From: an uncultured delta proteobacterium
Lineage (GTDB): Bacteria > Myxococcota > UBA727 > VGSZ01
NCBI GenBank assembly: GCA_963775425.1
Contig: CAVZJB010000012.1
Location: 320,001 to 384,000, forward strand
Reading direction: 5' to 3'
Length of the DNA stretch: 64,000 bases
In this document: in pieces, positions 1,070 to 5,596 of the stretch
Layout: every line of letters starts with the position of its first letter
Numbering within the stretch: position 1 is the first letter of the stretch
Program-made: the position numbers and the translations under genes
Notes under the pieces: generated by a model
The model's database searches: none
Seen by the model: only the letters and a program-made list of their open reading frames with translations
Told to the model about the DNA's origin: nothing

Positions 1070-1164
1070 CGCGCTCGACCCCCGTCAGCGCGCTCGACCC
1101 TCGTCATCGCGCGCAGCCTCGCCCTCCGCCGGAGGTCGCGCGCGCTCATTGGACAACCTCTACG

Positions 1165-1372
1165 CCGCGGTGACGGGTTGAGCGATCTTCCCGGCGCCGT
1201 CTCCCGGGCTTCGTCGGGGAGGGCCGCGCTCGCTTGCCGGTGAACGGCCCCTGTGAGACCCGCCCCCTCGACGAAGCCGGGAGCCTTGAAGCGGCTACAG
1301 GACGTTGCGCCCGACGATGTTTGCTGACGACGACGGAGCGCCTGTCAATGAGCAACCGATCAAGGCTCCCAG
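1165..1372 (+). ncRNA. IS110 bridge RNA (target-binding loop and donor-binding loop); ends approximate
   Basis: Stem GGCTTCGTCG 1207-1216/CGACGAAGCC 1269-1278 encloses guides CGCGCTC (1225-1231) and CCTGTGAG (1250-1257), which match the flanks. Stem GGGAGCCTTGA 1279-1289/TCAAGGCTCCC 1360-1370 encloses ACAGGACGT (1297-1305) and CAATGAG (1346-1352), which match the element ends. Confidence 0.88.
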
Positions 1373-1406
1373 CCCGGGGGACGGTACCGCAACAAGGAGG
1401 TCCGTC

Positions 1407-2612
1407 GTGTCGTACTTTGCAGGTTTGGATTGGGCGGCGAACGAACACGCCGTCTGCGTCATCGACGACAAGGGCAGCGTCGTGCTCCGCCTCGTCGTCA
1501 AGCACACCGAGGAGGGTCTCACCGGCGCTGTGGCGAAGCTCCGTAGGTTCACTGAGGAAGCGCCGCTGCGCATCGCCATCGAGCGGCCGACGGGGCTCGT
1601 CGTCGACACGCTGGTCGATGCGGGATTCCACGTCGTGCCGATTCACCCGAACGTCGTGAAAGCGACGCGTCCGCGCTACTCGAGCGTTGGCGCCAAGAGC
1701 GACCCCGGCGACAGCTACCTGCTGGCAGACTTGCTGCGCACCGATGGGCATCGCTTCAAGACGCTCACGCCGCTCGGAGACGAGACGAAGGCGCTGCGTG
1801 CCCTCGTTCGCGCACGCGGCGACCTCGTTGCCGAGCGGGTTGCACTGGCGAACCAGCTGCGCGCGCTCGTTGAGAGCTTCTGGGCCGGCGCCGCGTGCAT
1901 CTTCCGCGACATCGACTCGCCCATCGCGCTGGCGTTCCTCGGGAGGTACCCGACACCGCAGCACGCCGAGCGCGTCGGCGAGAAGCGGCTCGAAGCGTTC
2001 CTGGCGCGCAACCACTACTCCGGTCGCAGGGACGTCGCCGAGCTCCTGGGCCGCTTGCGAGGTGCGCCCAGCGGCAAGTGCGGCGAGATGGAGGCCGAGG
2101 CGAAGGGGGAAGCCGTGCAGCACCTCGTCGCGGTCCTCGACATCGTCGTCGCACGTCTCAAGAAGCTCAACGCCGCCGTCGAACACGCCGTCGAGGCGCA
2201 CCCCGACGGGCACATCGTGATGTCGTTTCCGCGCAGCGGACGCATCAACGCCGCGCAGATTCTCAGCGAGCTCGGCGACGAGCGCGCGCGCTTCGACAGC
2301 CACGAGCACCTCGAGGCCGAGGCTGGCGTGTGCCCCGTAACGTTCGCGTCCGGCAAGCACGTCGGCGTCGCGTTCCGGTGGGCGTGCAACAAGCACCTGC
2401 GCTCCGCCGTGACCCTCTGGGCCGACAACTCGCGACACAGCTCGCCATGGGCCGCCGCCCTCTACGACGCTGCCCGCGCTCGCGGCCACGACCACCCGCA
2501 TGCGACCCGCATCCTCGCTCGTGCGTGGCTCCGGGTGCTGTACGCGTGCTGGAAAGCCCGCGTCCCGTACGACCCGGCCCTTCACGGCCGCGCCGCCGCG
2601 CTCGCCGCCTGA
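1407..2612 (+). CDS. IS110-family transposase/recombinase
   Basis: RBS AAGGAGG at 1394-1400 before GTG 1407. RuvC-like DEDD motifs GLDWA, AIERP, KSDPGD; C-terminal AGVCPVTFASGK with the conserved Ser, and RILARAWLRVLYACW. Confidence 0.95.
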   Translation: MSYFAGLDWAANEHAVCVIDDKGSVVLRLVVKHTEEGLTGAVAKLRRFTEEAPLRIAIERPTGLVVDTLVDAGFHVVPIHPNVVKATRPRYSSVGAKSDPGDSYLLADLLRTDGHRFKTLTPLGDETKALRALVRARGDLVAERVALANQLRALVESFWAGAACIFRDIDSPIALAFLGRYPTPQHAERVGEKRLEAFLARNHYSGRRDVAELLGRLRGAPSGKCGEMEAEAKGEAVQHLVAVLDIVVARLKKLNAAVEHAVEAHPDGHIVMSFPRSGRINAAQILSELGDERARFDSHEHLEAEAGVCPVTFASGKHVGVAFRWACNKHLRSAVTLWADNSRHSSPWAAALYDAARARGHDHPHATRILARAWLRVLYACWKARVPYDPALHGRAAALAA

Positions 2613-2635
2613 GATGGCGTGACGCAGCGCGGTGG

Positions 2636-2641
2636 TTGACA
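2636..2641 (+). promoter_or_regulatory. Outward-facing -35 box of the IS110 circle-junction promoter
   Basis: Perfect TTGACA. On circularisation through CTCA it lies 17 nt from CAACCT (1154-1159), upstream of the bridge RNA. Confidence 0.7.
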
Positions 2642-2650
2642 CAGGACGTC

Positions 2651-5596
<2,946 letters not shown>

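Follow-up and report, generated by a model that had tools for sequence, protein, structure and literature searches.

An IS110-family element of about 1.5 kb occupies positions 1147-2649 of the window (the whole stretch of 64,000 nucleotides that was analysed), and the dinucleotide CT flanks it on either side. A transposase gene lies between a left end (LE) of 260 nt and a right end (RE) of 37 nt. This is the long-left/short-right layout of the IS110 group, in which the LE exceeds the RE in length (Durrant 2024, PMC11208160). CATTG, the right donor (positions 10-14), forms the start of the LE. Coordinates are collected in Table 1, which also gives the position numbering of target and core.

The genome of 8.26 Mb (72% GC) contains four full, near-identical copies of the element together with one truncated copy, which ends at element base 928. 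The full copies show 100% identity (a rounded figure; one copy has a slightly lower score). All copies are found in differing flanks, and identity breaks off precisely at CTCA, a tetranucleotide present at the left junction of 5/5 copies and at the right junction of 4/4 full copies. For the window copy these are positions 1145-1148 and 2650-2653. At the right junction of this copy, the stop codon of a convergent gene (2651-2653) overlaps target bases T9-C10-A11. As a separate observation, the junction TCA is the TGA stop of a convergent gene in all four full copies and in 31 of 46 relatives.

The first-pass annotation, made from the window alone, had suggested looking for an empty allele. No strict one was found among the genomes compared, none of which is of the same genus. 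In three family relatives (G009, G007 and G001) the flanking genes are present at roughly the spacing seen here and without the insertion sequence; the insertion site itself has diverged in these three, with no CTCACAG there. A search of sequencing runs gave four DNA runs with 5-8% of words, and no RNA run was among the matches.

Table 1. Features of the element and its flanks (window coordinates).
Feature	Position	Strand	Remark
Left target (LT), positions 1-7	1138..1144	+	G1144 = position 7
CT core, left copy, positions 8-9	1145..1146	+	
Left end (LE), 260 nt	1147..1406	+	encodes the bridge RNA; -10-like CAACCT at 1154-1159
Structured bridge RNA	1204..1377	+	outer helix 1204-1209 with 1372-1377
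Target-binding loop module	1210..1275	+	inside outer helix
Left target guide (LTG), family register	1226..1234	+	GCGCUCGCU; matches own target at 8/9 positions
Target-loop cap hairpin	1236..1248	+	GCCG-GUGAA-CGGC; consensus fold
Right target guide (RTG), 7 nt	1251..1257	+	CUGUGAG; pairs with top-strand positions 8-14, CTCACAG
Handshake guide, target-binding loop	1258..1259	+	AC; complementary to donor positions 6-7, GT (2648-2649)
Donor-binding loop module	1280..1369	+	inside outer helix
Left donor guide (LDG), 8-9 nt	1297..1305	+	ACAGGACG plus U; identical to right-end bases 2641-2649
Right donor guide (RDG), 7 nt	1346..1352	+	CAAUGAG; pairs with CTCATTG (1145-1151)
Handshake guide, donor-binding loop	1353..1354	+	CA; C complementary to target G7, A unpaired with C6
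Ribosome-binding site	1394..1400	+	AAGGAGG
IS110-family RNA-guided transposase gene	1407..2612	+	GTG start, 401 aa, TGA stop
Right end (RE), 37 nt	2613..2649	+	-35-like TTGACA 2636-2641; left donor ACAGGACGT 2641-2649
CT core, right copy	2650..2651	+	
Right target, positions 10-14	2652..2656	+	CACAG
TGA stop of convergent FG-GAP/UnbV_ASPIC gene	2651..2653	-	gene 2651-5596, 981 aa

The transposase was assigned with Pfam to DEDD_Tnp_IS110 (PF01548, 1.5e-32, residues 5-158) and Transposase_20 (PF02371, 2.3e-14, residues 269-353), and it scores 183.1 bits against the NCBIfam equivalog NF033542, for which the cut-off is 140. The structure of IS621 (8wt6) was matched at an E-value of 3.8e-7, mainly in the Tnp domain, and both the Ser and the D..D motif line up: KSDPGD faces KTDTVD and ASG faces ESG. 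D99 and D102 align with the D..D motif of IS621, and S315 with the serine of ESG. The catalytic residues of IS621 are D11, E60, D102, D105 and S241; by count, the serine of ESG is residue 243 of the chain, and it was equated with S241 on the assumption of a two-residue tag. In six relatives D8 and E59 do not vary, as judged from the alignment of the relatives. With an N-terminal DEDD RuvC-like and a C-terminal Tnp domain, the predicted protein reads as an intact RNA-guided transposase of the IS110 group.

The comparison set comprised about 90 homologous elements with 45-68% protein identity. Guides and junctions were extracted by regular expressions that assume conserved anchors, and the counts are conditional on this. 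N-T-[C/T]-A was demanded of left junctions and TGA[G/C] of RDGs. A relaxed left-junction expression gave spurious sites and was discarded for the stricter parse. Two elements (L019 and L021) are degenerate, having frameshifted or truncated reading frames, and were used anecdotally only.

The region 1204-1377 is predicted to fold as a two-loop RNA, as the first-pass annotation had expected of this part of the LE, with a minimum free energy of -143.2 kcal/mol and a z-score of -5.97. A consensus fold of 36 sequences has 93.9% of cells paired, compared with 36-44% when the partners are slid, and compensatory changes occur in 22 of the 39 stem pairs. The covariation score of this fold is 0.417 versus at most 0.109. 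In the cap hairpin three of the four pairs are invariant in 36/36 sequences, the fourth being CG in 35 and UG in one. No Rfam family for the bridge RNA was found (Rfam 15, E up to 1, positions 900-2900); an Rfam snoRNA match on the opposite strand was judged to be chance. A two-loop bridge RNA, as predicted from these alignments, is strongly supported among the roughly 90 homologous elements.

Four matches between this RNA and the element boundaries had been reported from the window alone, and all are present. CGCGCTC of the left flank (1141-1147) recurs at 1225-1231, and CCTGTGAG (1250-1257) is the reverse complement of 2650-2657, with the GCCG-GTGAA-CGGC hairpin at 1236-1248 between them. 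Further on, ACAGGACGT at 1297-1305 equals 2641-2649 and CAATGAG at 1346-1352 is the reverse complement of 1145-1151. Chance was evaluated using 2000 dinucleotide-preserving shuffles of 1165-1406. Shuffled sequences gave a match of at least the observed length in 29% of cases for the left flank (7-mer), in 7.9% for the right flank (8-mer), in 0.75% for the right end (9-mer) and in 4.3% for the left end (7-mer); all four were reached jointly in 0/2000. Because 29% of the shuffles reach a 7-mer, the left-target match by itself is not beyond chance. The main support for the putative guides is covariation among the homologues, rather than the matches within the window.

The RTG, LDG and RDG stand as first read, and each of the three changes together with its DNA partner from relative to relative. 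For the RTG, the match fractions at positions 8-16 are 1.0,.99, 1.0,.97,.97,.94,.81,.24 and.41 (70 pairs). C1250 pairs with G15 in the window copy, and in the family position 15 equals background. Contiguous pairs past CTCA number 2.74 on average versus 0.87 (sd.15, max 1.41) in 2000 shuffles, using 54 pairs. The LDG 8-mer is identical to the element's own right end in 39/40 relatives, the exception being a G-T wobble, and its positions covary; the AC variant found in the window element is unique to it and matches its own right end. A 7-nt match of the RDG was found in 37/38 relatives, and its positions 12 and 14 covary. The LDG reaches no further than position 6-7, without core pairing, and the next two RNA bases are variable. 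CT is covered by LTG, RTG and RDG, but not by LDG. Such a deviation concerns a detail within the family and does not exclude the element from it.

For the LTG the register had to be revised. The family register places GCU (1232-1234) on G7-C8-T9, and target position 7 is G in 49/50 relatives. Over 50 relatives, the identity observed at positions 3-6 exceeds the expected one by.18 to.26, and covariation is confined to the diagonal placing GCU on G7-C8-T9, which corresponds to 1226-1234 in the window; the originally read register, 1225-1231, has no family covariation. Complementarity between LTG and left target is weak, with 14/30 matches at positions 1-6 of this genome's five targets, and in the family no more than 36-74% identity is reached at positions 2-6. 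The covariation check across homologues, suggested in the first-pass annotation, came out positive for RTG, LDG, RDG and the LTG at 1226-1234, and negative for the LTG at 1225-1231. The 5' side of the target loop would accordingly represent left target plus core, and its 3' side the complement of core plus right target.

The 1225-1231 match could still be held if the LTG of the window element were shifted by 4 nt in the 5' direction, that is GGCCGCGCU at 1222-1230 on positions 1-9. The internal loop could accommodate such a shift, and the target of the L001 copy has 8/9 matches in the shifted register versus 5/9 in the family register. However, the shifted register shows no covariation across the 50 relatives, and the canonical GCU is kept beside the cap. 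Over the five targets the two registers tie at 14/30, the window copy favours the family register by 8/9 versus 7/9, and a 7-mer match like that of the left flank is frequent among the shuffles. We find the shift unlikely, and the family register is used here.

The dinucleotides following RTG and RDG are candidate handshake guides, a concept of Hiraizumi 2024 (PMC11208158), and are predicted to pair with the non-cognate DNA at positions 6-7. GAGAC is kept in 36/36 aligned relatives, and the donor GT in 65/66.

A 4-nt CTCA core was the central proposal of the first-pass annotation. It would mean that exchange spans all four shared bases, in this element or in the whole clade, and a bridge recombinase with a longer core, if true, would alter target choice. 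CTCA bounds the copies of this genome at either end and occurs at 65/78 right junctions, and the junction 4-mers are identical in 46/52 relatives; the RNA 3' of 1225-1231 could moreover be extended by a G-T wobble followed by a matching C. Yet the 4-mers at the two ends are unequal in 6/52 elements with both junctions parsed. These six have CTCA at the left junction and a different 4-mer at the right, and L080, L046 and L114 in particular contradict the proposal. The right junctions without CA are GTTATAG, CTCTTGT, CTCCCGG, CTCTCGG, CTTCGGG and CTCGCGC. In 6/6 of these relatives the RTG, which departs from CA at positions 10-11, agrees over 7 nt with the right junction of the same element, the RTG bases facing these two positions covarying with the target. 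The junctions of L080, GTAGCG-CT-CACTAGG and GGGAGT-CT-TCGGGAC, have only CT in common, and all four of its guides match.

The left side of the target loop gives the same picture. The family LTG halts at T9 and the RNA base after it is unconstrained (C21, T16, A8 and G5 of 50); target C10 is invariant in the LTG parse, whose regular expression itself demanded T-[C/T]-A at positions 9-11. The first core position varies (GTCA in L018, where RTG and RDG have UGAC) and the T is constant, as in IS621, where the core T is constant and the first base variable (Hiraizumi 2024, PMC11208158). CTCA was therefore rejected as a 4-nt core, since six relatives differ at positions 10-11 with covarying RTGs and L080 shares CT only; we give the longer core next to no chance. 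CT is the only obligatorily shared sequence, an IS621-type core, and CA is positions 10-11 of both right target and right donor, which have the same letters in most of the clade. With this standard core there is therefore no new rule for target choice. CA is common to donor and target in 46/52 elements, for which the mechanism gives no explanation. A literature search gave nothing relevant on 3- or 4-nt cores or on CTCA in IS110; the supplements of Durrant 2024 may list cores and guide lengths of this clade, and the Caloranaerobacter preprint is without passages on the core.

The copies might also be inactive relics in which the guide matches were merely inherited. One copy is truncated, and the left-target complementarity is weak. 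Against this, the four full copies are about 100% identical (rounded) in unrelated flanks, with an intact reading frame, catalytic motifs and all four guides, and the LDG variant unique to the window element agrees with its own right end. Relics are thus quite improbable. Positions 1147-2649 very probably represent an intact IS110-group insertion sequence that was active recently, having a bridge RNA with two internal loops in the LE and a CT core. The first-pass annotation had likewise seen an intact IS110-group element with target-loop/donor-loop bridge RNA, which protein families, fold compensation and guide covariation all bear out.

By analogy with IS621 we infer circle formation, a junction promoter, RNA expression and the cleavage positions. 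The element would excise as a circle with an RE-LE junction of ...ACAGGACGT-CT-CATTG..., placing the TTGACA of the RE 17 nt from the weak -10 of the LE, and the transcript driven from the junction would fold into the bridge RNA. A transposase tetramer would hold this junction via the donor loop (LDG 1297-1304 on the bottom strand, RDG 1346-1352 on the top strand) and a (N6)G-CT-CACAG site via the target loop (LTG 1226-1234 on the bottom strand, RTG 1251-1257 on the top strand). Strands would be exchanged at the CT dinucleotide, after which the handshakes (AC 1258-1259 and C 1353) would pair with the non-cognate partner. TTGACA is found at the same place of the RE in 68/84 relatives. The -10 CAACCT has 2/6 matches to TATAAT, and the family -10 is only YACCYT-like. 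No sigma-70-like promoter was found in the integrated copy.

The core-like CA might be explained by the convergent genes. Tentatively, and with somewhat more doubt than confidence, we suggest that the soil-dwelling clade fixes the RTG opposite T9-C10-A11 and so lands on a convergent TGA, a stop-codon safe harbour. The programmable RTG bases (12-14) would then read the last sense codon, and the donor CT would rebuild the stop. The donor CA may also aid recognition of the hybrid junction during excision. Most insertions lying on TGA stops may show how such elements spare their hosts. A literature search for IS110 target sites at stop codons returned nothing on the topic among the entries listed, and a stop codon is nowhere mentioned in the seekRNA paper (Siddiquee 2024, PMC11187229).

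Among the closest known relatives is IS621 of E. coli (Durrant 2024, PMC11208160; Hiraizumi 2024, PMC11208158; PDB 8wt6). Both elements have a DEDD/RuvC-like and a Tnp domain with the catalytic serine, and a bridge RNA in the long left end with the target loop followed by the donor loop. In each loop the 5' guide is for the bottom strand, and the one on the 3' side is for the top strand. The two elements also share the CT core with constant T and variable first base, a -35 element in the right end, and handshake dinucleotides directly 3' of RTG and RDG. The protein is distant, however (E 3.8e-7; 401 aa here versus about 326), and the RTG has 7 nt versus 4 in IS621. The RDG pairs over 7 contiguous nt here, whereas IS621 uses a discontiguous 9-on-7 pairing; the LDG stops at 6-7, whereas that of IS621 reaches C8 (as its numbering was read); and positions 10-11 are CA in donor and target here. 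In the window element an outer helix surrounds both loops. Right guides longer than those of IS621 had been put forward as a distinguishing feature. The length of the RTG is correct, but not new, as Durrant 2024 (PMC11208160) had already described longer RTGs in some orthologues and a usage of 4-7 nt on the 3' sides of the loops. The element is useful as a well-documented high-GC orthologue, apparently active, in which the RTG is naturally 7 nt long and the RDG spans 7 contiguous nt, and its clade of several hundred relatives provides natural examples of reprogramming at positions 10-14.

IS622/ISCro4 (Perry 2025 preprint, 10.1101/2025.05.14.653916; PDB 9t56) is close to IS621 and equally distant from the window protein (E 9.7e-7); it has the same architecture, with 14-nt recognition around a dinucleotide core and handshake guides. 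ISEc21 and the other IS110-type seekRNA elements (Siddiquee 2024, PMC11187229) likewise take their guide RNA from an upstream non-coding region; they have other targets and belong to other clades. In the same paper, seekRNA elements are said to insert without true target duplication, and duplications claimed earlier (4 bp for ISEc11, the logo of IS492) are attributed to one copy belonging to the insertion sequence. On that account, CTCA here has the same kind of appearance as the apparent duplications of ISEc11 and IS492. With its CT core, the element is an unexceptional member of a family already known.

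The first-pass annotation read this IS110-family element as carrying a bridge RNA with four guides and an apparent 4-nt CTCA core, and every sequence match that it listed was recovered by direct reading of positions 1000-2800 (see table). Chance levels were estimated from 2000 dinucleotide-preserving shuffles of 1165-1406, where a match at least as long as the observed one was counted. This length was reached in 29% of the shuffles for the left flank, 7.9% for the right flank, 0.75% for the right end and 4.3% for the left end, and in none of the 2000 for all four jointly. The matches in the window alone are thus only moderately unusual.

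Coordinates of the features (window positions unless a locus is named)
Feature	Position	Strand	Remarks
CTCA copies	1145-1148, 2650-2653		
CGCGCTC, present twice	1141-1147, 1225-1231		
GCCG-GTGAA-CGGC hairpin	1236-1248		
CCTGTGAG	1250-1257		reverse complement of 2650-2657
ACAGGACGT, present twice	1297-1305, 2641-2649		
CAATGAG	1346-1352		reverse complement of 1145-1151
Outer helix	1204-1209 with 1372-1377		
Left target guide, family register	1226-1234	+	GCGCUCGCU; 8/9 to the window copy's target
Left donor guide region	1297-1306		
Transposase ORF	1407-2612	+	GTG start, 401 aa; domains DEDD_Tnp_IS110 and Transposase_20
TIGR-Tas model match	residues 130-363 of the transposase (1407-2609)		27 bits, cut-off 100
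TGA stop overlapped, window copy	2651-2653	-	convergent gene
TGA stops overlapped, copies L001, L003, L004	1497-1499	+	convergent genes
Truncated copy	L005:1501-2428 (G000:C18:86455-87382)		
Repeated motif behind it	L005 ~2429-2560 (G000:C18:87383 onward)		GGGCAGGTCACGCCCCGGCACAGGG-like

Relatives were taken from two scans. The species-genome scan gave 10 loci of 45-67% identity from Methylomirabilota, Gemmatimonadales, Roseomonas, Rokubacteria, Acidimicrobiia, Salinispora and other Actinomycetota, and the metagenome scan gave 530 relatives, the best 80 of which (61-68% identity) were used. Guides and junctions of these 90 loci and the window were extracted by anchored regular expressions, and the anchors cause some conditioning of the counts. 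Target and donor positions are numbered 1-7 on the left, 8-9 for CT and 10-14 on the right. One relative (L093) has the right junction CCCA, with C at position 9, and another (L019) has the right junction GTTA, a presumed left junction GCCA and a frameshifted ORF; both are possibly decayed or off-target insertions.

The window RNA folds with -143.2 kcal/mol (z -5.97). A curated structure, consisting of an outer helix and a stem with cap for each of the target and donor loops, was tested on 36 sequences. Paired cells amounted to 93.9%, versus 36-44% with partners slid by 1-3 columns, and compensatory changes were found in 22 of 39 pairs. The covariation score was 0.417; sliding the partners brought it to 0.109 or less, and 0/500 shuffles reached 0.417. 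This conserved two-loop fold, together with guides covarying with the DNA across relatives, bears out the bridge-RNA reading. The outer helix surrounds both loops and has compensatory changes in 6/6 pairs across the 36 relatives.

For the right target guide (RTG), the Watson-Crick match to the right junction at positions 8-16 is 1.0,.99, 1.0,.97,.97,.94,.81,.24 and.41 (70 pairs). Because the fractions drop after position 14, the family RTG is 7 nt long; the eighth pair of the window copy (C1250-G15) is at background level in the family. Contiguous RTG pairs past CTCA average 2.74, versus 0.87 when shuffled (sd.15, maximum 1.41; 54 pairs, 2000 shuffles). In 37 of 38 relatives the 7-mer of the right donor guide (RDG) fits the left end of the same element, and positions 12 and 14 covary. 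Directly 3' of the RTG stands AC in 36/36 aligned relatives, complementing donor GT (65/66), and the C directly 3' of the RDG complements target G7 (49/50); these are the handshake guides in the sense of Hiraizumi 2024 (PMC11208158, consulted part). A long RTG had been put forward as a departure from IS621. Its 7 nt hold in the family, but RTGs longer than that of IS621 are already stated for some orthologues in the part consulted of Durrant 2024 (PMC11208160).

The 8-mer of the left donor guide (LDG), ACAGGNNG, is identical to its own right end in 39/40 cases, the single exception being a G-T wobble. The window variant (AC) is unique and fits its own right end. For the left target guide (LTG), an excess identity over expectation of +.18 to +.26 at positions 3-6 appears on one diagonal only (50 pairs), on which the invariant GCU beside the cap falls on G7-C8-T9; the RNA base just before the cap is free to vary (C21 T16 A8 G5). 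C10 is invariant in this parse, but the regular expression demanded T-[C/T]-A at positions 9-11. The register first assigned to the LTG, 1225-1231, has zero family covariation signal and gives way to that of the family diagonal. The five targets in the genome do not discriminate between the registers, with 14/30 matches at positions 1-6 for either.

The host genome (8.26 Mb, 18 contigs, 71.9% GC) contains four full copies at 100% identity (rounded) and one truncated at element base 928. CTCA is present at 5/5 left and 4/4 right junctions, and the flanks are unrelated to each other. The targets of the full copies are GCCGCG-CTCA-CAGC, GCGCG-CTCA-CAGG, CGTCG-CTCA-CAGG and GGCCG-CTCA-CAGC; of the truncated copy's target GGCTG-CTCA alone is visible. 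The truncated copy runs into unrelated DNA, and directly behind it a motif of ~30 nt occurs twice in ~100 nt. Among the genomes compared, all from outside the genus, a strict empty allele was not found: in three family relatives the genes on either side are present and the IS is absent, but the site has diverged.

CTCA is very common in the clade, though not obligatory: it is found at 65 of 78 right junctions, and 46 of 52 elements carry the same 4-mer at both junctions. Six elements have an RTG that specifies bases other than CA at positions 10-11, and each of the six fits the right junction of its own element along 7 nt (GTTATAG, CTCTTGT, CTCCCGG, CTCTCGG, CTTCGGG, CTCGCGC). The relative L080 has the junctions GTAGCG-CT-CACTAGG and GGGAGT-CT-TCGGGAC, with CT alone in common, and its four guides all fit; in L046 and L114 the junctions have CTC alone in common. 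In the Salinispora element CTCA is replaced by GTCA, and its two right guides carry UGAC; hence the first position of the core is variable and the T constant. The compensated non-CA guides, the junctions of L080, L046 and L114, the constant T and a family LTG ending at T9 jointly show an ordinary CT core and do not support one of 4 nt. CA falls within the right target and the right donor, outside the core. We found no publication on a 4-nt core in IS110 elements; the supplementary tables of Durrant 2024 may list clade cores. Short duplications claimed in the family come about because one of the two copies is part of the IS, according to the consulted part of Siddiquee 2024 (PMC11187229).

In 4/4 full copies a long convergent ORF has its TGA stop exactly at the TCA of the right junction. 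Three of these ORFs are confirmed genes, with Pfam domains near the C-termini (dCTP deaminase-like, FemAB_like, FG-GAP/UnbV_ASPIC), and the opposite strand of the target reads last codon, TGA, GC. Among the 46 relatives with junction TCA and a flank of 180 nt or more, third-position GC is highest in exactly the stop frame in 31 (binomial P versus 1/3, 2.5e-6), and 23 are strong cases. Unoccupied GCTCACAG sites in the genome are in stop phase in 35/92 cases (22/92 strong), and all GCTCA sites in 16% (6% strong). GCTCACAG lies above GCTCA and occupied sites above both: the motif is over-represented at gene ends, with a further excess among occupied sites. Either targeting or the survival of harmless insertions could account for this. 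Stop-codon siting offers a reason for the near-fixed CA in the target guide.

A promoter scan found no sigma-70-like promoter in the integrated copy. TTGACA stands 8 nt ahead of the core in 68/84 right ends, and the left ends share a conserved YACCYT hexamer; by our own reading a circle would place the two 17-18 nt apart.

With NCBIfam NF033542 ('IS110 family RNA-guided transposase'; cut-off 140) the transposase reaches 183 bits; the NCBIfam model of the TIGR-Tas RNA-guided endonuclease matches it weakly. The solved proteins of IS621 (E 3.8e-7) and ISCro4 (E 9.7e-7) are distant relatives, and the D..D motif and ESG serine of IS621 can be aligned with it; this serine is taken to be the catalytic one, by residue count on the printed alignment. 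The element is a new, well-supported member of the known IS110 family. The part consulted of Durrant 2024 gives 8-9 nt for the pairing of the 5' loop sides with the bottom strand, and 4-7 nt for that of the 3' sides with the top strand. Among relatives L012-L123, target complementarity is strong on the right (81-97% at positions 12-14), whereas the left is weak (36-74% at positions 2-6). We infer that this fits 2026 abstracts dealing with excision and half-match recombination, and it is reminiscent of the 'half-match' insertions that a 2026 preprint, consulted as its abstract, reports for IS621. IS621 has the same variable first core base and constant T (Hiraizumi 2024, consulted part). By our reading of that numbering its LDG reaches C8, unlike the clade LDG, which extends no further than donor position 6-7 and does not pair with the CT core.
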